Assembly (NCBI GenBank): GCA_965112155.1
Contig: OZ218100.1
From: Podarcis liolepis
Taxonomy: Eukaryota
DNA: 64,000 nt
Reading direction: 5' to 3' (one strand)
Shown: positions 29,201-61,700 of the stretch, piece after piece
How the letters are laid out: every line of letters starts with the position of its first letter
How positions within the stretch are numbered: the stretch's first letter is position 1
The notes under the pieces: model-generated
Seen by the model: the letters and a program-made list of their open reading frames with translations, nothing else
Told to the model about the DNA's origin: nothing
Databases searched by the model: none
Translations under genes and position numbers: made by a program

Positions 29201-29613
29201 CCACCATGACAACCATACAGCTGTCCTAAGATGCCATTGGCCTGATGTGTGATGTGGCACTCTGGTTTTCTTGACTAGGCAGGAATAAATGTGATCTGAA
29301 AGTGGAGGATATTAACATCAGTCCCTTGTCATGGTCAACTCACCTCCTGTTGAATTTTAGGCTTTCAGCAGTTTTCCCCCCTTTGCAGAAGCAGGGGACC
29401 TATTAAGGTGGTCCACTCTCAGAGGCTGATGGATTCAACTGGTTTCCAGATGGATAGATATTTCAGCTAATATGACTGGCACTTCTGTTGAAACTCTGGC
29501 CAATGTGTGGAATATACAGTCCAGGCTCCCTTGGATGAAACCAATTTTCTAGATCCATTTCAACTGGGGTTCTGAGAATGTAGAATACATTGCTGCAAAT
29601 ATATATATATATT

Positions 29614-30405
29614 TGTCAGAGCTGCTTGAAGATCCTAGCTCACAGAGGATCACGCTAGCCAGCGGTCATTAAGTAAAAGTCTTTATTGAATTACAGTTTC
29701 CATTCTCACGCTGCTGCGCGCAACTCTACGCCTAGTAGCTAGGTCGGCGAAGCTCCGTCTGAGTCTCCGCCCTGTGTGCACCAACTTAATATCCTAGCCT
29801 TGCTCCACCTTTTCCTCCTGACTGTCCTCCTCTGGGTCCCTCTACCCCCCGGGGCTTCTTCCTTCCGGGATTCTTCTGACGCTGACCCAGACCCTCCTGC
29901 CTCTTTGCGCCGGGCTTTAGGACCTGGCTCTCTTTCGGGGCTGCTTACTGCGCCGCCTTCCTCTGCATTTGAACTTGGCGCGCGCGCCCAACCTTCCACT
30001 TTCCTCTCAACCGTTTCTTCGCTCCCCGATGGAGGTGTGGCCATCCCCGACTCATGTCCTCCCTCCTGTGGAGGTGTGGCCACTCCTGACTCATGTCCTC
30101 CCTCCTGTGGTGAGCTGCCAGCGCTTCCCCCCTGGCTCCCTTCCTCTTCCCTGCTTCCTGGCGGTGACGCTGGTCCCGATTTCCAGCTGCTCCCCCCTGA
30201 GTCCTCTCTGGCTCTGTCTTCCTGGGGTGCCCCCCTAGACTCCCCCCTTGCCCTCGCCACTGGTGCTCCTTTCTGTGAATCCTCTGATTCACTGGAAAGA
30301 CTAGGAGATCTCGGGTCGTCGTCGTCACTCATCTTTTCTTCTGCCTCCTCCCCTTCGCTCTCTGTTTCCTCCCTTGCCCGTGCTTCTGCTCCTAAACCCC
30401 TGACA
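29614..30405 (-). repeat. 3' LTR (792 bp)
   Basis: Identical by eye to 35444-36235 (offset 5830); AATAAA on the minus strand at 29682-29687. Confidence 0.97.
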
Positions 30406-33400
30406 TCCATCCCCCCCTCGAAGCCCCCCATTCCCCCCTCCCCTCCTTCCGGTGCTGGAGCTGGGGGCTGCTGTTGCAAAGGGACGAACGTCGGGTATCG
30501 GTCGCTTCCCGTGGCAGGCCTCCATCTGAAGTCTCCCGGGTCTTCCTCCCCGCTCTCGTCGACGACAGTCACCTCCGCTTCCATCTCTGTGCCGCCGTGC
30601 TCGAAACCAGGGTCGTCCCCGAAAACGTCCATGTCCGTCTCTCCCTCACTTCCTCCTGTCGGTGTTGCTCGTCCTGGGCCTTCCAGCCACCGTCTGCGCC
30701 ACTGCTCCTCTGGCCTATCGTCCCACCAATACGAGGGTTCTGATGCAGATCCCGAGGGTGACCCCTCCGGGGAACGGACGTCTTGTGTCGGGTCCTCGTC
30801 CGAGTCGAACCCCCGGAAAGTGCTGGCCGAAAGTGTGGGCGTGAAAAGCCAGTCGTCAAAATATTCTGCTGGCATAGGTCTATGGGGAAAGAGGGCATGA
30901 AACTCGTCTTTGAGGAGAGGTTCGTCCAAGGCGTAGCCCGGCACCCAGCTGTTCGCACTGGCCGGGGTGCCCTCCTTGGCGAGAAAGTATTCTACCCCCT
31001 CTTCCCCCCATCTGGAGTCCAAAATCTCAGTGACTTCGTTGATGCGCTCCTTCTGTGCCACTTCCGCGTGCCCTGTTCTGTCTCTGACCGGACTCGGCGC
31101 TGTTCCGGGTTCCTGGAACCTGTGCGGTGCCTTGTAGGGAGTGAGCACCGATCTGTGGAATACCGGATGCATTCTGGAACCCTCCGGAAGTGCCAGTCTG
31201 AAAGCTACCGGGTTGACCTGCTCTTCGACTTGGTAGGGCCCCAGTTGTTTATGCCCTAGTTTCTTCTTGGCCAACGACCTGGCCGGCACTGCGTGGGCTG
31301 CTAACCAAACCCAGTCTCCCACGTGGAGCTCTTCTCCAACCCTTCTGTGCTTGTCTGCTTGTACCTTGTATGCGTGCTTGGCCAGCTCCAGGTGGCGCCT
31401 CAGCTGATCGTGGACCTCCTGCAGCTCCGACGCGAACGCATCTGCTGTCTGCGGCTCCCCCTCCCCCATTCTTTCCAGTCCCGGGAAGGTTCTGGGGTGC
31501 CTCCCGTTGTTGGCGAAGAACGGCGTGACCCCCGTGGACACGTGCTTCGTGTTGTTGTAGGCGAACTCGGCAAGCGGTAGGTAATCCACCCACGTCGCAG
31601 GCTGTTGATTTGCATAACATCTCAGGTACTGCTGCATGATGGCATTGACCCGCTCCGCTTGCCCGTTGGTCTGCGGGTGTCTCGCCGACGCCAGGTTGAT
31701 CTTGACGTTCAGGAAGCCCATCAGCTTCTGCCAGAAATTCGAGATGAACTGCCGCCCCCGGTCGGACAGAATAGACCGTGGCAGACCATGAACCTTGAAC
31801 ACGTGGTCTATGAACAGTTTGGCGGTTTGCTCCGCCGTGGCCACCTTCGCACACGGAATGAAATGCGCCATCTTGGAAAACAGGTCCACCACCACCAGCA
31901 CTGCCGTCTTGCCCCTTGAGCTGGGCAGATCCGTGACAAAGTCCAGAGCCACCCTTTCCCAAGGTTCGACCGGAGTTTGCAGCGGTTCCAACAGTCCGGC
32001 CGGCGGTTTGTGCACTGGTTTGGCCCTCTGGCAGGTGTCGCACCTCGCCACGTAGTCTGCGACCTCCCCTCTCATTCCAGGCCACCAGAAATCCCTGGCT
32101 ACTAATTCCACCGTCTTCTCCTTGCCAAAGTGCCCGGCCGTGGGCGCGTCGTGCAGCTGCTGCAGCACCTTGGCTCGAAGTTCGTCTCCCGGCACGTAGA
32201 TGGCCCCTTTTCGGATGAGCAATCCATCTCGTAGCCGGAAACCGTCGGCCGCTGCCTTGCCCCTTTGCACCTCTGCCATCTTTGCTTGTGCGAAGGAGTC
32301 CTCCTGCAACGCACGTCGCACCGCCTCTAGGTCCACGGTCGCCGCGGCGCACGCCCACACTGCTGGTGCGAAGATGTGCATGGCGGCCGCTGGCGTTGCG
32401 TCCTCCAGATACTGTGGCTTACGGGAGAGAGCGTCTGCCATGATGTTGGTGTCCCCCGGGACATACTCTATTCGGAAGTCGAAGTTTGCAAAGAACTCAG
32501 CCCAACGTATCTGCCTCTGGTTCAGGAACTGTGCCGTGCGCCAGTGCTCTAGATTCTTGTGGTCCGTGCAAACCTGCACCGTGTGCTTGGCGCCGATCAG
32601 AAAGTGCCTCCACGCCTTGAACGCTGCGTGAATGGCCAGCAACTCCCTGTCCCAGATGGTGTAGTTCTGTTCGGACTTGCTGAGCTTCCTGGAGTAAAAC
32701 GCTCCCGGTCGCCACACCCCCTGTGGGTCTTTCTGCAACAGGACCGCCCCCACGGCTCTGTCCGAGGCGTCTGTCTCCACCCTCATCGGCTTGCTGGGGT
32801 TGACATGAAGCAGCTGCTCTTCCGACGCGAAGAGACGCTTGAGTGCCTGAAAGGACTGCTCCGCCTGCGCTGTCCAAACGAACTTCTTCTTCTTGGAGCT
32901 AAGCGTGTCAGTGATGGCCGCTGTCTGCATCGCGAAGCCCTTGATAAACTTGCGATAGAAGTTCGCAAAGCCGACAAACCGTTGGACCTCCTTCCGGTTG
33001 CGCGGACTCTTCCAATCCAACACCGCTCGAACCTTGGCGCTGTCCATGGCGAGCCCCTTGTCAGACAGCTTGTAGCCCAGAAAATCCACCTCCGGCACGT
33101 CAAATTGGCACTTCTCCAGCTTGGCGTAGAGCCTATGTTGCTTTAGCCTGCTCAGCACTTCTTTGACGTGTCCGTCATGCTCCTGCTGCGACTCCGAAAA
33201 GATCAGGATGTCATCTAAGAAACAGACGCACGTCTTGTAGAGAAGTCCCGCCAATACGTGATGCATAAACGCTTGAAAAACGTGGGAGCCATTTTGCAAT
33301 CCAAAAGGCATAACTCTATATTCGTAGGTCCCCAGTGGCGTGAACATGGCTGTCTTCCACTCATCTCCTTCCCGCATGCGAATGAGGTTGTACGCCCCCC

Positions 33401-34340
33401 GCAGGTCCAACTTGGTGAACACTCTGCCCTTCCGTACCTTTGCGAGGAGGTCGTCAATACGGGGCATGGGGAAGTCCGATGGCCTAGTCAGACTGTTCAA
33501 AATCCTGTAATCCACTACCAGTCTTTTCTGGGGCGTGTCCCGCTTCTTAACAAAGAATACGGGACTGCCCCCCACTGCCCTGGACTCCCGGATGAAGCCG
33601 CGTTGCAAATTATGGTCAATGAACTCTTTGAGTTCCTGCAGTTCGTCCTCTGACATGGAATACAGTTTCCCTTTAGGCAGCGCCGCCCCCGGCAGCAGGT
33701 CAATTTTGCAGTCATATGGTCTGTGAGGGGGTAGCCTGTCTGCCTCCTTCTCGCAGAAAACTTCCAAAAATTCAGCGTACTTGTGTGGAATCGCTTGCAG
33801 CGTGCCTAGCAGCAGCTGTGACTCCTCTTCCTCTCCTTCCTGCCTGGGCACGATGCAGTGTTCAGCACAAAAGGAAGAGCCGAAGGTCAGCTGCCTCTGG
33901 TACCAAGCCATCGCTGGGCTGTGCTTGTCCAGCCAACTCATGCCCAATACAATGGGCGTGTCAGATAGTCGAGTGACGTTGAAGCTGATGATTTCTCTGT
34001 GATTCCCAAGTCGCATCACCATTGGTGGCGTCTGCTTCACCACTTGCCCCCCGAGCAGCTCCCTGCCATCCACCGTGACAACCTGCAGGGGCAGTGTGGC
34101 CGGCAGCAACTGCACAGCGTGCCTGTCGACAAAGTCCTGCCCTATAAAGTCCGCATTGCTGCCTGAGTCAATGGTGATTGGCACGTCCATGGTGATTCCA
34201 TTGGGCAGTTGGAGAGACGCTGTGAGCCTCACTACTGGTTTGGGCGGGAGGGGGTTCACGGGCTGTAAAACCGCTGGGGACTGCGTCACTAACACGTCTG
34301 GCTGGGCCCCAGTGCCTCTTCCTCCAGCCAGACAGCCTCG
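29739..34340 (-). CDS. pol: Pol (protease, RT, RNase H, integrase, GPY/F, chromodomain, long acidic tail), expressed as Gag-Pol by -1 frameshift, about 1871 aa in total
   Basis: Motifs IDSGS (PR); LDLRGAYN, MPFGL, FLDDILI (RT); ETDASD (RH); H..H..CDTC, LDFVTD, SDRG, GQAERVN (IN); GPYQ..HPVFH; EILDSRW..EYF..NSW (chromodomain). The ORF-track start at 34424 is not an ATG. Confidence 0.95.
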   Translation of the reverse strand, partial: RGCLAGGRGTGAQPDVLVTQSPAVLQPVNPLPPKPVVRLTASLQLPNGITMDVPITIDSGSNADFIGQDFVDRHAVQLLPATLPLQVVTVDGRELLGGQVVKQTPPMVMRLGNHREIISFNVTRLSDTPIVLGMSWLDKHSPAMAWYQRQLTFGSSFCAEHCIVPRQEGEEEESQLLLGTLQAIPHKYAEFLEVFCEKEADRLPPHRPYDCKIDLLPGAALPKGKLYSMSEDELQELKEFIDHNLQRGFIRESRAVGGSPVFFVKKRDTPQKRLVVDYRILNSLTRPSDFPMPRIDDLLAKVRKGRVFTKLDLRGAYNLIRMREGDEWKTAMFTPLGTYEYRVMPFGLQNGSHVFQAFMHHVLAGLLYKTCVCFLDDILIFSESQQEHDGHVKEVLSRLKQHRLYAKLEKCQFDVPEVDFLGYKLSDKGLAMDSAKVRAVLDWKSPRNRKEVQRFVGFANFYRKFIKGFAMQTAAITDTLSSKKKKFVWTAQAEQSFQALKRLFASEEQLLHVNPSKPMRVETDASDRAVGAVLLQKDPQGVWRPGAFYSRKLSKSEQNYTIWDRELLAIHAAFKAWRHFLIGAKHTVQVCTDHKNLEHWRTAQFLNQRQIRWAEFFANFDFRIEYVPGDTNIMADALSRKPQYLEDATPAAAMHIFAPAVWACAAATVDLEAVRRALQEDSFAQAKMAEVQRGKAAADGFRLRDGLLIRKGAIYVPGDELRAKVLQQLHDAPTAGHFGKEKTVELVARDFWWPGMRGEVADYVARCDTCQRAKPVHKPPAGLLEPLQTPVEPWERVALDFVTDLPSSRGKTAVLVVVDLFSKMAHFIPCAKVATAEQTAKLFIDHVFKVHGLPRSILSDRGRQFISNFWQKLMGFLNVKINLASARHPQTNGQAERVNAIMQQYLRCYANQQPATWVDYLPLAEFAYNNTKHVSTGVTPFFANNGRHPRTFPGLERMGEGEPQTADAFASELQEVHDQLRRHLELAKHAYKVQADKHRRVGEELHVGDWVWLAAHAVPARSLAKKKLGHKQLGPYQVEEQVNPVAFRLALPEGSRMHPVFHRSVLTPYKAPHRFQEPGTAPSPVRDRTGHAEVAQKERINEVTEILDSRWGEEGVEYFLAKEGTPASANSWVPGYALDEPLLKDEFHALFPHRPMPAEYFDDWLFTPTLSASTFRGFDSDEDPTQDVRSPEGSPSGSASEPSYWWDDRPEEQWRRRWLEGPGRATPTGGSEGETDMDVFGDDPGFEHGGTEMEAEVTVVDESGEEDPGDFRWRPATGSDRYPTFVPLQQQPPAPAPEGGEGGMGGFEGGMDVRGLGAEARAREETESEGEEAEEKMSDDDDPRSPSLSSESEDSQKGAPVARARGESRGAPQEDRAREDSGGSSWKSGPASPPGSREEEGSQGGSAGSSPQEGGHESGVATPPQEGGHESGMATPPSGSEETVERKVEGWARAPSSNAEEGGAVSSPEREPGPKARRKEAGGSGSASEESRKEEAPGGRGTQRRTVRRKRWSKARILSWCTQGGDSDGASPT
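30406..30420 (-). other. Polypurine tract (PPT)
   Basis: Minus strand cgagggggggatgga directly precedes the TGTCA start of the 3' LTR. Confidence 0.9.
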
Positions 34341-34346
34341 TTTCCC
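34274..34346 (-). promoter_or_regulatory. -1 ribosomal frameshift signal (G GGA AAC plus H-type pseudoknot)
   Basis: Heptamer at 34346-34340 in the gag frame, 6-nt spacer, 10-bp stem 1 GUCUGGCUGG/CCAGCCAGAC, stem 2 CUGGGG/CCCCAG; pol is in the -1 frame. Confidence 0.88.
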
Positions 34347-35353
34347 TGCTGTGGTCCCCCTTGCTGTGTTGCAGCAGTCACCATTGCTGAGGCTGCAGTG
34401 AGCTTGTGGGGCCTCTGGGGACACTCTTTCGCCATATGCCCTGGCTCCTCACAGACGTAACACTTCCTGTTTCCTCTAGGAGGCTTCGCTTTCACTGCTG
34501 CTGGTGCTAGGGCTCTGGTTGCTGACTGAGCCCTTGCACCTCCCACCTCCATAGGTTCGGCTCCTCCTCCTGGCGGAGGCGTGGATTGCGCCCGCGCTGC
34601 TTCCCTGGGAAAGAAGGAGGGGCCCCCGGCTGGTTCGCGCCCTCCACGCCCTTCGTCCCTGTTCCACGGACGTCCTTCCAGCCTCACCCCCACTGCCAGT
34701 GCCCTCTGAACGACCTCCTGGGTGGTTCGGGGTCTCTCCCCCCTGGCGATCTCATCTTTAATCGAGTTATGCAGCCCCTCCCAAAAGAGGTCTCTTACAG
34801 GAGCCGAATCTCTGTCCCATTCCAGGGCACTGACCAAGGCGAAAAAGCGGGCATGGTACTGCCTGACGCTGGCCCTCCCTTGTCTCAGCCCATGCACCTC
34901 CTTCCGTGCAAGATCCACGTCAATACTTGATAAAAAACACCCATCCATTGCTTTAATAAAGGCATCTGCATTCTGTAGCGCCGGATCCTTATCTCTCCAT
35001 AAATTGCGTAGCCATGCTCTCGCATCCCCATGCAGATGGGACATGATGAACCCCACTCTCTCTTGTTCATCTCTAAAGTCTTTATGCAGCAGTTGCAGTG
35101 CGCACAGTACGTCGGCTCTAAAGTTGGGATACTGTTGCAGGTTCCCATCGAAGTGAGAGACCAGCCCGCCTGTCCGTCTCGCCAACCCAATGCCCTCCTG
35201 CCGGGGTGTCTGCTTTGTCAGCACGTCTAACCTGACCTGGAGATCCCTGCAGGCTGCGGCTGCTTCCTCCTCCCTCTTCCTGGATGCTAGAGCCTCGGCG
35301 TTCAGTTGTGCCACCGCGTTTCTGAGTTCCTCTATCTGCTGCTCAGCCGTCAT
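34289..35353 (-). CDS. gag: Gag (354 aa): coiled coil, capsid-like domain, CCHC zinc knuckle
   Basis: ATG 90 nt downstream of the 5' LTR; LHGDARAW and LRQG..SV..Y capsid motifs; CYVCEEPGHMAKEC knuckle. Confidence 0.95.
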   Translation of the reverse strand: MTAEQQIEELRNAVAQLNAEALASRKREEEAAAACRDLQVRLDVLTKQTPRQEGIGLARRTGGLVSHFDGNLQQYPNFRADVLCALQLLHKDFRDEQERVGFIMSHLHGDARAWLRNLWRDKDPALQNADAFIKAMDGCFLSSIDVDLARKEVHGLRQGRASVRQYHARFFALVSALEWDRDSAPVRDLFWEGLHNSIKDEIARGERPRTTQEVVQRALAVGVRLEGRPWNRDEGRGGREPAGGPSFFPREAARAQSTPPPGGGAEPMEVGGARAQSATRALAPAAVKAKPPRGNRKCYVCEEPGHMAKECPQRPHKLTAASAMVTAATQQGGPQQGNEAVWLEEEALGPSQTC

Positions 35354-35430
35354 GTCGTCTGCCGTTCGTGAGCTTGCTAGTAGGCACCTGTGTCTCTCCC
35401 CTCCTCGAGGCTGTAGATGCCCACAAGTGG

Positions 35431-35441
35431 AGACGGAGCTT
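35431..35441 (-). other. Primer-binding site, self-priming type
   Basis: AAGCTCCGTCT lies 2 nt after the 5' LTR, has no TGG start, and is exactly complementary to AGACGGAGCTT at 35590-35580 in the LTR. Confidence 0.88.
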
Positions 35442-35443
35442 AC

Positions 35444-36235
35444 TGTCAGAGCTGCTTGAAGATCCTAGCTCACAGAGGATCACGCTAGCCAGCGGTCATT
35501 AAGTAAAAGTCTTTATTGAATTACAGTTTCCATTCTCACGCTGCTGCGCGCAACTCTACGCCTAGTAGCTAGGTCGGCGAAGCTCCGTCTGAGTCTCCGC
35601 CCTGTGTGCACCAACTTAATATCCTAGCCTTGCTCCACCTTTTCCTCCTGACTGTCCTCCTCTGGGTCCCTCTACCCCCCGGGGCTTCTTCCTTCCGGGA
35701 TTCTTCTGACGCTGACCCAGACCCTCCTGCCTCTTTGCGCCGGGCTTTAGGACCTGGCTCTCTTTCGGGGCTGCTTACTGCGCCGCCTTCCTCTGCATTT
35801 GAACTTGGCGCGCGCGCCCAACCTTCCACTTTCCTCTCAACCGTTTCTTCGCTCCCCGATGGAGGTGTGGCCATCCCCGACTCATGTCCTCCCTCCTGTG
35901 GAGGTGTGGCCACTCCTGACTCATGTCCTCCCTCCTGTGGTGAGCTGCCAGCGCTTCCCCCCTGGCTCCCTTCCTCTTCCCTGCTTCCTGGCGGTGACGC
36001 TGGTCCCGATTTCCAGCTGCTCCCCCCTGAGTCCTCTCTGGCTCTGTCTTCCTGGGGTGCCCCCCTAGACTCCCCCCTTGCCCTCGCCACTGGTGCTCCT
36101 TTCTGTGAATCCTCTGATTCACTGGAAAGACTAGGAGATCTCGGGTCGTCGTCGTCACTCATCTTTTCTTCTGCCTCCTCCCCTTCGCTCTCTGTTTCCT
36201 CCCTTGCCCGTGCTTCTGCTCCTAAACCCCTGACA
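35444..36235 (-). repeat. 5' LTR (792 bp): U3 about 36235-35591, R from about 35590, then U5
   Basis: TATTAA at 35621-35616 (about -31 from the predicted start), AATAAA at 35517-35512, TG...CA ends. Confidence 0.97.
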
Positions 36236-37213
36236 ATATTAAAAATTCAGAAATATAGGAAAATAAATAGGAACCATCCTAGGAACCAGTAACACATCAT
36301 AAGTTACAGCACAAAGGGAACTTCATAAGCAACTTAGTAGTTTCCACTATCTAGGAACATATGATGTTCAGACTATTCAACACTATTTTCATCACTCTCT
36401 GAAAAGCACCAACATTCTTGTCATCAGTGATGGGATTTTCTATTCAACCACACCTATTTATTATCTGTATAGCAACTAATGCAAATGTGGCAAGAAGAGA
36501 AAGGAATTGGGCATTAACTTCTCTGCCAATTATATTTCGTGCTGCCTTATTTTGTTCCAGTTGCATCTTATTGAACAAAAAGGAAGGAATGCCAATACAC
36601 TGTTGATAACCAATTGTTTAAAGTGCTATGCCCAGTTTTTATGGTGAGTATTTAAGTTGCGTATGGGAAATGAAAATCAATAGCTGAGCAATGAGGCATG
36701 CAGGTTGGAGAGATGTGAGTGGAAATGGAGTATTGGTGTTAAGCAGTACTAACAGGGCTTATAATTTACGGTTGAATTTGGTTTTCTTTCTTTTGGAATC
36801 AGAAGAATAAGTTGGCACATTTTCAGCCCCTTTATTTATCATTTGGTATTTAAGACAAATATATAGGGACTGCATAAACAACCCCAGCTTTTTATTAAAA
36901 ACGCCACAATTTGTTTTTCCATTCTTGAACCTGGGAACTTCTGCACGTAAAGCAGGTGCTCTGCTACTGAGCAATGGTCCCAACCTCTACGTCCAGTGGG
37001 GCTTACTCCTTGTAGGATTCAGTATTCAAATATGCTTACATTGGCCAATGCATCTGACCGCCTTTACAGGGCTGCTTGAGTAGAAACCATCTGCTGTGGA
37101 GATTGTGGAAACTATTCCATTTCCCCTAGAGAAACAGTTGTGGAGGCTGGGCAGTAGGATCAATGGGTTTATAGGCTAATCCAGTTTAGCAAATCCTGTG
37201 AAATGCTACATTC

Positions 37214-51269: not shown

Positions 51270-52722
51270 TTAAGATTTGAGTTTCCTCTTGCTTTCTTCA
51301 TCCCAGTCAAAGTCTAGGGTGGAATCATCAAAATCAGCTACTGAGAACAAAGATTTTCCTGTGCCAGTGCTGGCTCTTCCCGGTTCAAAGCACTTCCTTG
51401 AGTGCCCCACGCTATTGGAGGTTTGGGCTTCCAATGGCTCCCTCTGTCTGTCCCTGTCATTACTGGTGACATGCAACAAAACTGGAGACTTTGGCTTTGA
51501 TTCAGCTGATGGCTTGAAGGCAAAGCTGGCTAATTTTGCCAGTATACCGGAGCACACTTTTTTCGTGTTCGCACCATCTGATATTTCCTCTCTCATTCTT
51601 GCCTTTTTTGTGGAGGAAGGGAGTGAATGATCGTTTTGCTCCTCCTCCTCTCTTTGGTTATCACAAGGGCGTTTCTCCATTCTATTATTTCCCACCTTAG
51701 TATTGTGTTCCTTGTGGTGTTTCTCAGGACAGCCTTGTCCCCTTGGCTTCCCCACTTTTGACACAGTGTTGGTAGAAGTGTGAGGGCTGCAGACAGTATC
51801 AGGCAATTGGGCATGATTTTCATTTTCAGAAGGCCAAGCAAGCTTTGGCTTCTGCTTACGCTGAAACTTAGCTAGTTTAGCAGCTGCAGGTCCCAAATCT
51901 TCCAGGATTTCAGGTTTAGTAGAACTTCCTGCTGCACCTTTATTTGTTTGGCCTCTGTTTCGCTTTCTGGTTGAAGTAGCACACTTCTGTTGCCTTAAAA
52001 ATGTGCTGTGAGGTGGGGAAGCACCCAAGTCTGTTCTGGGGTGTTGTGGAAGAGCAGCTGGACCAGGAGAAAATAAAGTTGGAGAACACTCAACCTTCGG
52101 ATCTGGGGTACTTGCACAAAACCCATTAACTCCTTCAATGTTTTCCCTGTGCCATTTCTTAGAGGCCCTGTGAGTAATCACTAAATCAGGTGAGGTACAA
52201 TCCGCTGCATTTGGGCCTTTGTCACTTGCTCCTGAAGGTAAGCTTGTGGGCTTGGTTGCCTTCCCCCCATCAAGACTAGAGGCAGCCTGTCTGCAAGCAT
52301 TTCCCAGAGCTATTGTTGTTGGTGTGGTTTGCTTGGCTTCACTTAAGTCATTTCTTTCTTTAGAGCAGGGTTTGTTGTGTGGGGCTTTCAAAGACGTTCT
52401 TGCAGTTGGAGACATTCTTGCAACTGGAGACTCATAAATGCTCTTCTCAGCTTCAGTGCTGCTGTCCGTCATACTGTCAAACCAGCTCAAGCTACTGTCC
52501 TTGCTGCATTCACTGGGTTTGCCCCACTCCTTTGTTACTCTGTTATCATCAGATGTCTGGCTGCTTGAGAATATTAGGTACTTATCAGGTTGCAATTGTA
52601 TATTATTGCCCTCTTGGTCTGAATGTTGTGGACGAGACATCTGCTCCGGTTTCTCAAGTGTGCAATTGTTTGAGGATGCCTCTTTGGACTGCAGAAACTG
52701 AGACAAATTTTCATTCTGCAAT
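51270..52722 (-). CDS. MCM9: MCM9 terminal coding exon (long disordered C-terminal extension)
   Basis: Acceptor ttttgcAG|A in phase 2, continuing the previous exon; motifs AKLAKF, LAKLASFAFKP, KSLFS..LDFDWDEE typical of the MCM9 tail; stop TAA at 51272-51270. Confidence 0.92.
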
Positions 52723-53051
52723 CTGCAAAACAAAAACAAAATATATTTTACAAAAATAAACTATATTTTCCCCTTCCCTGATCCTATGAAATGCAGGATC
52801 TGCTCCATCTATGTTTGGGTTCACAGCCCTAATTATTTATTTTGATTTTGGTAAGCATATAAGTAAATGTAAGCAACTGTCTAATTACAGAGTTATTATT
52901 CGGCACCATGCCTCTTCACTTTGATACCCTGGACAGTAAGTTTATTAGTGGCCATCCTATGCTACTGCCTATTGCAATAGCACATGTGTTGCCTGAATCC
53001 ACTGTGATTTGCAAGGGCTTTTTTTTTGCCTCCCGTATAAATGTTTATCAC

Positions 53052-60499: not shown

Positions 60500-61700
60500 T
60501 TCACTTCGCTTCAATTACGCCAAGGCCCCTCTTCTTGCTAGTTCACTTCTCTCAAGAGCCTCGCTCGCTTCCCTCTCCAGCCCTTTCACCCTCCTCTGGT
60601 CCAGCAGGTGGAGCGCCAGCTAAAGCTTCCCACTCCACTCGGGCTACGGGAGCCCATCTTGCTCTTTCGGGGAAGCCTCGGCTGCAGGAGGAGGGCCATA
60701 GCTCAGCGTGCAGCCAATCCGCGCCAGCCCTGCCAGTTAACAGAGCAGAATGGGCTGTAGTTTAGTGTAACAGGAAAGCTGCAAAACAGTGTGGAGTGCT
60801 CTCGGTGCAACATTAAAAAAGAGAGAGAGGAAAACAAGAAAGGGGAAGACGGAGAAGGGCGAGTTTTTGGGTGGTGCTTTTTTTTTTTTTAAGCAACCCA
60901 AACCTCAAAGTTTCCTAACTCTCAACGTGCTCGCTTGCCGGCGCTGGGGTTCGCGCCCTGCAAACGGGGAGCCCCCTGGACTTTTCCCGGGCTGCGGTAA
61001 CACACTATTGTTTGCGGGTCTCCCCTCCCCCCCTCCCCGAAATATGGCAAAGGTTCAGGTGAACAACGTCGTGGTGCTGGACAACCCTTCTCCTTTCTAC
61101 AACCCTTTCCAGTTCGAGATCACGTTCGAGTGCATCGAGGACTTATCCGAAGGTGAGTTTGCCCGGGGTGGATTTTTCGCCCCCTCGGCGCTGACCAAGC
61201 CCTTTCGGGCTATTTCCCTTCCCAGGCTTAAAGTTTGCAAAGGCCTCGCTGCTGCTGCTGCTCCCTCTCCTCCTCCACCTCCTCTGCATCTGGCATGATG
61301 GAAGGACGGTGGGCTTTGCAGCCGCCGCCGCCTCCTTCTCTCCCACCCAACCCGGCAGCGCCCGCACGGTGCGCCCAGCTTCTCCGGTCTTCCGCTCGCG
61401 AGGAAGGGAAGCCTTTAAGTTGCAAGGAACTTGTTTGAGCGCTGGGAGCAGCCATGTTGCCAGCATTGTGCTGCTGCCGCTGCTGCTGGTATGTGTTGGA
61501 GGGGGCGGCGGGGCGCGTACGCGAGAGAAGGAGGGCTCAACGGAAACACCTCGCACGCTTCGGGTTTTGGTGGCGGGAGGCGAGCCGGGAGTGGCTCAAC
61601 TACCCAGTGCAAAGGAACCAAAGGGGTGCTACAGATGGGCGGGGGGGGGGCCGCTGAGAACACCTGCAAGTTAAGTGGTTTCCACTCATCAGCTTTTAGT
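60500..61700 (+). promoter_or_regulatory. ASF1A: ASF1A CpG-island promoter region
   Basis: CpG-rich stretch around exon 1; CCAAT box at 60714-60718. Confidence 0.75.
61044..61152 (+). CDS. ASF1A: ASF1A histone chaperone, coding exon 1
   Basis: MAKVQVNNVVVLDNPSPFYNPFQFEITFECIEDLSE matches the ASF1A N-terminus; donor G|GTGAGT. Confidence 0.98.

Follow-up and report, generated by a model that had tools for sequence, protein, structure and literature searches.

The Nef protein of HIV and the Sag protein of MMTV are coded in U3 of the long terminal repeat (LTR) at the 3' end, as separate genes on their own mRNAs. In plants, the open reading frame (ORF) of group A CRM elements extends into the 3' LTR and some Reina elements of beet carry LTR-encoded integrase tails (PMC3059260, PMC3605345), which makes too narrow the claim of an earlier, sequence-only reading of the present DNA that U3-encoded proteins are mainly a feature of complex retroviruses. 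Self-priming, in turn, is a hallmark of Tf1/sushi elements (PMC6317226). In the 64,000-nucleotide stretch of Podarcis liolepis contig OZ218100.1 (assembly GCA_965112155.1) that we analysed, hereafter the window, we found a complete and intact LTR retrotransposon (29614-36235, minus strand). It is a self-priming chromovirus of the Ty3/Gypsy group from a lacertid lizard; its pol frame runs on through the whole of U3, and its LTR-encoded tail is selected as protein. The tail is likely (probability about 0.55) to extend integrase at the C-terminus as a disordered segment that serves nuclear import and the tethering to chromatin, acting instead of a chromodomain that has lost its aromatic cage. An integrase extension for import or chromatin targeting had also been suggested by the sequence-only reading, and the results on the open frame and on selection are in line with it.

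The pol frame is free of stops from 34448 to 29742 and ends at a TAG (29741-29739), with 378 codons beyond the chromodomain (30875-29742), 221 of them inside the 3' LTR. The tail frame crosses the polypurine tract (PPT) and the whole of U3, takes in both the TATA position and the self-primer, and ends in R; the stop codon occupies LTR nt 665-667 and the AATAAA follows at nt 719, 51 nt further on. These extents agree with those first proposed, the position of the stop within R following from the match between self-primer and primer-binding site (PBS) that places the likely R start at nt 646. The description of the tail as acidic and S/E/G/P-rich with many SP/TP sites and a basic end was also borne out (G57, E53, S47, P37 and R34 in 381 residues, 11 SP/TP sites, net negative charge except in the final 50 residues), and a Pfam scan of the tail at E<=1 gave no match. 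Shuffled sequences of the same composition were rarely free of stops over this length (3/5000 with dinucleotide and 0/5000 with mononucleotide shuffling; 47/5000 and 5/5000, respectively, for the LTR part alone).

The tail protein is under purifying selection across the sister subfamilies, with ratios of nonsynonymous to synonymous substitution (dN/dS, omega) of about 0.2-0.4 in U3. Comparison of the window copy with eight subfamily representatives by the Nei-Gojobori method (NG86) gave 0.18-0.31 for U3 and 0.23-0.47 for the pre-LTR part of the tail, with 0.06-0.11 for the SH3 domain plus chromodomain (computable for seven of the eight) and 0.71-2.23 for the other sense frames of U3. In a codon model of 19 intact copies omega=1 was rejected for both parts (2dlnL, twice the difference in log-likelihood, 153 for U3 and 122 for the pre-LTR tail), the optimum on a fixed grid of values being 0.4 and 0.3, respectively. 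Because these 19 copies had been selected for an open tail, the test was repeated at the DNA level: of 110 LTRs found, the 96 distinct ones were aligned as nucleotides, with broken and solo LTRs included. Third codon positions of U3 diverged about twice as fast here (e.g. 0.21/0.31/0.52), and six of seven clusters showed no third-position excess past the stop; variants common to at least three copies were distributed over the codon positions as 32/31/82 and singletons as 96/126/169. The stop column read TAG in 45, TAA in 36 and TGA in 13 LTRs, with a gap in 2. Length classes found in at least nine LTRs were multiples of three in 7/7 cases within the coding part and in 0/3 beyond nt 660. There were also four frameshifting length classes with 3-5 copies, at G runs or a (GC)n run and in three of the four cases scattered across subfamilies, and a 4-nt loss common to two copies. 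Indels in multiples of three and dN/dS below 1 are what the sequence-only reading had expected of a coding U3. An antisense ORF of 385 codons over the tail (29743-30900, plus strand), open in the window copy, was rejected as a shadow, being closed in 11/19 copies over U3 and in 15/19 over the pre-LTR tail.

The reading frame is kept well beyond the window copy. A 30-nt internal probe had 269 exact matches in the genome, and among 30 young copies, that of the window included, 28 had the same full tail, one lacked a 39-nt repeat unit, in frame, and one was split by an insertion; since these copies were picked by identity over 30200-30900, only the distal U3 is an unbiased test in them. The tail was also found in homologues labelled Podarcis muralis and P. 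lilfordi, and a search with a diverged tail led to sister subfamilies, with LTR DNA up to 40% diverged, in which the pol frame likewise remains open across U3. Among 62 rows of older or sister copies (some being one copy fetched twice), 31 were open to the homologous stop and 31 broken, and many of those broken in the tail were also broken upstream in pol. We also observed head-to-tail tandem elements sharing an LTR at a spacing of 5830 nt (G000 C7:16345/22175, C4:35209583/35215413 and C1:139387179-139398841; L001/L002, L014/L015). Below, lineage 1 denotes the clade of the window element, and lineages 2 and 3 two other chromovirus lineages of the same genome; lineage 3 forms such tandems as well (spacing 5005 nt), and a good part of the older copies of lineages 1 and 2 is on a 40-Mb contig (G000 C20), possibly the W chromosome.

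LTR nt 646-656 are exactly complementary to an 11-nt stretch beginning 2 nt past the 5' LTR. A self-primer/PBS match of 9-11 nt was present in 24/28 elements checked, and in the four others (L066, L069, L076, L152) the LTR pairs look wrongly called or missing. The pair co-varies, with three bases altered on both sides in subfamily D and paired changes of their own in lineages 2 and 3, and the start of R was therefore placed at nt 646. Taken with self-priming as a mark of Tf1/sushi elements, this points to nt 646 as the likely transcription start, which would put TATTAA at -31, make U3 coding throughout and leave the stop 19 nt into R. The earlier view of the same DNA as promoter TATA, self-primer and coding sequence thus stands for the coding part and, through the pairing, for the self-primer; the TATA part is weak. 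TATTAA is present in only about 22 of the 96 LTRs, the majority of the rest reading CTTAA, CTTGAA or CATAA, and a TATA box as a conserved element was rejected, as the sequence is not conserved among the 96. Contigs from three sequencing runs, guessed to be RNA, covered 30/30 bins and one spanned the PPT/LTR junction; they showed no start, end or poly(A) end.

A coding LTR is a trait common to three chromovirus lineages in this genome and is not unique to the window element. Lineage 2 (integrase 52-54% identical to that of the window element, LTR about 436 nt) has a tail of 200-213 residues in 31/40 loci, with about 109 tail codons in the LTR, the same phase at the PPT/LTR junction as lineage 1 and an omega of 0.3-0.4 (15 copies); some of its LTRs (L151, L153, L154, L159) are without AATAAA after the stop. 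Lineage 3 (integrase 48% identical; L188:5105-5480, L189-L192) has gag and pol in one frame of 1558 codons and a tail of 125-131 residues that stops just before the TATA-like box; its LTR-coded end, RRSARLKA, is one that we take to resemble the nucleosome-binding core of HMGN. In a tree that excluded four short rows and included two catfish proteins, lineages 1 and 2 and protein P0053 formed a clade (100/100), which lineage 3 joined at 93/92. Most other relatives stop 10-120 residues after the chromodomain, and two exceptions with long ends are probably fused gene models. Among chromovirus proteins, those labelled Vipera and Rhineura, available as proteins only, have ends of about 100 residues that are acidic and then basic; named close homologues of the long tails of lineages 1 and 2 were found in Podarcis only.

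The chromodomain of the window element aligns gap-free to an HP1-like chromodomain, with N, K and T in place of the cage residues Y, W and Y/F (cage as defined in PMC3059260 and PMC6317226). The cage is lost in 5/5 lineage-1 chromodomains (N, K/R and T/A at the cage positions), a loss that coincides with the longest tail, and the lineage-3 chromodomain matches HP1 with its cage intact. Directly after the chromodomain, lineages 1 and 2 have an aromatic helix-like stretch ending in F, a linker of 8-9 residues and FxGF, an arrangement that is doubled in lineage 2. F-x8/9-[F]xG[FW] was found in 20/20 aligned motifs of the two lineages and also in P0053, F-x-G being present in all 20 and the last F in 18 (the window element reads FRGF), and [FL]xGF follows the chromodomain in 10/116 scanned proteins, six of them from the lineage 1/2 clade. 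The motif that interacts with TFIIS N-terminal domains (TND-interacting motif, TIM) consists of a helix, an acidic S/T-rich linker of 8-16 residues and FxGF, the last being required for LEDGF and HRP2 (PMC9987994), and the genes for both are present in this genome. Judged on these features as the review defines them, the fit appears good for lineage 2, with its acidic linker, and partial for the window element, whose 8-residue linker has five S/T and no D/E. Structure prediction added little: a single-sequence AlphaFold model of chromodomain plus tail had a pLDDT (predicted local distance difference test) of 45, with even the chromodomain unfolded, and in this unreliable model a helix fell on exactly the nine pre-linker residues (pLDDT about 50); the best score of an ESM Atlas search (0.80) is a lead only; and a predicted complex of the integrase-binding domain of lizard LEDGF (P0202 290-375) with a 39-residue FxGF peptide scored 0.01, from a method unproven on peptides, and counts neither way. 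At the C-terminus, lineages 1 and 2 both have a basic patch followed by L-x-W. A CENP-C-like motif in the tail was rejected, as the spacing of Pro and Arg did not fit and Pfam gave nothing.

We also found the lineage-1 clade about 50-fold enriched at one satellite-bearing chromosome end. Six of the 30 young copies adjoin a satellite that is AT-rich and about 500 bp long, each at a junction of its own; among the best candidates (L198, L199, L201, L205), this satellite forms higher-order arrays (2-10 kb repeats) near one end of many contigs, and it is not matched to named lacertid satellites. Because the satellite ends were partly identified from regions beside lineage-1 matches, sampling at fixed offsets served as the unbiased test: of 9-kb segments taken in 10 large contigs at a distance of 100 kb from each end, 8/20 contained lineage 1 (at one end per contig only), versus 1/20 interior segments, and all six satellite-bearing terminal segments were among these eight. 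On contigs C1 and C3-C6, with neighbours within 10 kb collapsed, 19/77 sites of the window family are no more than 0.6 Mb from the satellite end, and 2 are at the opposite end, for an expectation of 0.5%, versus 0/28 sites near the satellite end for lineage 3 (Fisher p about 0.003, computed with n=78). Most chromosomes of lacertids are acrocentric and have telomere-like repeats in pericentromeric position (PMC7290949), so that the end with the satellite is probably (peri)centromeric.

Features of the element and its tail, with positions in the window
Feature	Position	Strand	Remarks
3' LTR	29614..30405	-	792 nt; likely U3 30405-29761, all within the pol frame; R from 29760
5' LTR	35444..36235	-	792/792 nt the same as the 3' LTR
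Target-site duplication ATATT	29609..29613; second copy 36236-36240		5 bp
gag	34289..35353	-	Retrotrans_gag, Ty3_capsid, zf-CCHC (Pfam); frame differs from pol
pol frame	29739..34448	-	1569 codons stop to stop; protease, reverse transcriptase, RNase H, integrase, SH3 (SH3_Tf2-1), chromodomain, tail
Chromodomain	30885..31037	-	Pol 1138-1184; weak Pfam Chromo match, E 0.12; without all three aromatic-cage residues
Tail	29742..30875	-	378 codons; acidic, low-complexity, under purifying selection
TIM-like stretch	30792..30869	-	aromatic helix-like part, 8-residue S/T linker, FRGF, acidic run; features as given in PMC9987994
Polypurine tract	30406..30419	-	translated E-G-G-M-D; in lineages 1 and 2, the Asp codon's third base is the first of the LTR
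Tandem duplication in U3	30030..30106	-	39-nt (13-codon) unit; single copy in most sister subfamilies and in L026
Basic patch RRTVRRKRW, candidate nuclear localization signal	29805..29831	-	basic in 19/19 aligned copies
TATA-like TATTAA	29786..29791	-	at -31; overlaps the codons for I-L in the conserved motif [ILV]-L-[SN]-W; in most subfamilies degenerate
Self-primer sequence, 3' copy	29750..29760	-	11 nt; 5' copy 35580-35590; doubles as codons of D-S-D-G-A-S
PBS	35431..35441	-	11 nt beginning 2 nt past the 5' LTR; complementary to LTR nt 646-656
pol stop	29739..29741	-	TAG, TAA or TGA at this column in 94/96 LTRs
AATAAA	29682..29687	-	retained in 94/96 LTRs

The end of gag overlaps pol by about 160 nt in a different frame (34289-34448). 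Two further features of the window seem to lie outside the element: the first exon of an ASF1 histone chaperone gene (60771-61298, plus strand) and a 496-codon frame without a Pfam match (51270-52760, minus strand), which, to judge from synteny, may be the last exon of MCM9.

If the tail is an integrase extension, it would be made as part of Pol, because full-length RNA starting at nt 646 would carry U3 at its 3' end only, and it would stay on integrase. Its basic C-terminal end could act as a nuclear localization signal or contact DNA or the nucleosome, and the helix-linker-FxGF motif, together with the many CK2/SP sites, would bind some chromatin factor of the host. The lead for this factor, and a rather doubtful one, is a TND protein, LEDGF or HRP2 for example. 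It seems possible, though somewhat short of an even chance, that the bias to satellite-bearing ends is due to the tail and not to a different part of integrase, by analogy with plant CRM elements, which an LTR-encoded CR motif directs to such DNA (PMC3059260). In its widest form, which we put forward tentatively and consider unlikely as a whole, the reading would be that the lizard lineage converged on the CRM design, with methyl-lysine reading abandoned and the promoter turned coding for a TIM-mimicking tail that homes to the centromeric satellite and telomeric-repeat chromatin of acrocentric chromosomes.

Several observations weigh against the integrase extension as a tether. Translation of the tail is deduced from sequence, and the satellite as a centromere marker is deduced as well. 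The lineage-1 linker is S/T-rich and not acidic, and a motif profile searched against the PDB retrieved no known TIM chains, its matches (adiponectin, E 0.72; a Numb peptide, E 1) being at chance level. The L-x-W motif coincides with the TATA position in both lineages, so that constraint on DNA and on protein are inseparable there, and it may be a DNA constraint. About three quarters of the young copies, the window copy included, are on chromosome arms, and many lineage-1 LTRs also occur within or next to TTAGGG arrays at contig ends (L200, L202, L203, L206, L210, L213, L216), some of these ends being without satellite, where short matches mixed with telomeric repeat may be library artefacts. 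No satellite flank was found at 40 loci of lineage 2 or 35 loci of lineage 3, though both code in their LTRs; a coding LTR alone therefore does not give the bias. Tethering by LEDGF or HRP2 would favour transcribed gene bodies and not satellites (PMC9987994), and lineage 2, with acidic FxGF motifs that are the more typical ones, shows no end bias at 0.5 Mb (1/44; 7/44 at 2 Mb). The FxGF lead is thus not yet reconciled with the satellite bias; the two may be separate functions, each of its own part of the tail.

The same distribution leaves some room for a tail that is translated and selected without any role in site choice, as an import signal, in particle assembly or as a spacer between reverse transcriptase and integrase, the pile-up then being due to a different part of integrase, to copies retained where DNA does not recombine or to amplification of arrays. 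Lineages 2 and 3, with coding LTRs but no satellite bias, are in line with this, as are the dispersal of most young copies and the tandem duplicates among the terminal ones. We nevertheless consider it improbable, since the equally young lineage 3 has not been retained at the same ends, the satellite junctions are six distinct ones and the loss of the cage accompanies the longest tail. Poorer still are the chances of an accessory protein in its own right, Nef- or Sag-like, cut out by the protease or made from a spliced RNA and acting on the host, for instance by titrating LEDGF/HRP2 or silencing factors. The length and disorder of the tail and its several conserved short motifs would suit such a protein, and gene callers do predict stand-alone LTR products (P0051, P0055), but the frame is continuous with integrase in every intact copy and U3 lies upstream of the presumed start site. 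As the 19 copies have no conserved Met within the LTR, a separately initiated product of the Nef/Sag kind is not favoured.

Neutral read-through, by which a T-poor, purine-rich strand would simply lack stops and the conservation would be that of promoter DNA, is by far the least credible explanation. The coding strand of the tail is indeed T-poor (11.7% T), the antisense frame of the window copy is open too, and half of the older or sister rows are broken in the tail. Against this stand the rarity of stop-free shuffles, the third-position bias, the in-frame indels, a conserved stop that uses all three codons, the closure of the antisense frame in most of the 19 copies and the additional breaks upstream in pol in many of the tail-broken rows; dN/dS below 1 in two lineages refutes it.

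In this element one stretch of DNA is selected coding sequence and self-primer as well as likely promoter and start site, in a family of at least 269 near-identical copies, so that every solo LTR also carries coding-shaped DNA. Lineages 2 and 3 offer built-in controls, with coding LTRs, other tails and other distributions. If the tail is a targeting domain, the element would be a vertebrate counterpart of plant CRM and a handle on how retrotransposons find centromeres, and if FxGF binds LEDGF or HRP2, a retrotransposon would have reached the lentiviral cofactor by mimicry of a host partner and not through the integrase core.

Like Nef of HIV and Sag of MMTV, the lizard tail has coding sequence in U3 of the 3' LTR; unlike these, it is read in one frame with integrase, and a conserved start is lacking. 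Our literature search, whose scope was without subscription papers (e.g. the 2009 description of an Anolis chromodomain element) and Repbase/Dfam, gave no description of a reptile chromovirus with a coding LTR, with an FxGF tail or with a centromere bias, and no vertebrate case of a pol ORF that enters the 3' LTR. Centrophilic Gypsy elements are noted widely in a 2026 centromere atlas, the main text of which, as available, has no match to lizard, Podarcis, squamat or chromodomain, while its supplements may list such species (10.64898/2026.09.17.752431). The tail start resembles the TIMs of JPO2, IWS1 and MLL1 in its hydrophobic helix-like stretch, a linker of 8-9 residues with S/T (and D/E in lineage 2) and FxGF, two in series in lineage 2, and differs from host TIMs in that the linker of the window element has no D/E and the motif is encoded by a retrotransposon; the review names lentiviral integrases alone as hijackers of TND domains (PMC9987994).

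The nearest of the known cases is plant CRM group A, with which the element has in common a polyprotein that crosses the PPT into the 3' LTR, the lack of a canonical cage-bearing chromodomain, a 5-bp target-site duplication (PMC3059260, PMC3605345) and a concentration in satellite-rich DNA, which is centromeric in plants. Unlike CRM group A, it keeps a degenerate chromodomain upstream of the PPT, its LTR-coded part comprises 221 codons, is acidic with a basic end and extends over the start site and the position of the TATA, no more than about one in four of its young copies is at a satellite end, and it self-primes in a vertebrate host, whereas CRM uses tRNA-Met. Of the CR motif that in CRM lies downstream of the PPT and takes the place of the chromodomain, Pfam showed none in the tail at E<=1, without a direct comparison to a CR profile. 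Judging from its self-primer and retained chromodomain, the element has the layout of CRM group A but is not a member. By domains and priming it would belong to the Tf1/sushi or V-clade type (PMC2774666), as it has the order protease, reverse transcriptase, RNase H and integrase with a C-terminal chromodomain and a PBS complementary to the 5' end of R. The domain order, the SH3 domain plus chromodomain and the 11-nt self-primer/PBS pair are those of the Amn/Sushi-like (V-clade) chromoviruses of vertebrates (PMC2774666, PMC6317226); unlike most other relatives, which end 10-120 residues after the chromodomain, the lizard element is cage-less and has a long selected tail. New here are the cage-less chromodomain, the tail start of helix, 8-residue linker and FxGF, and the enrichment of the clade at satellite ends.

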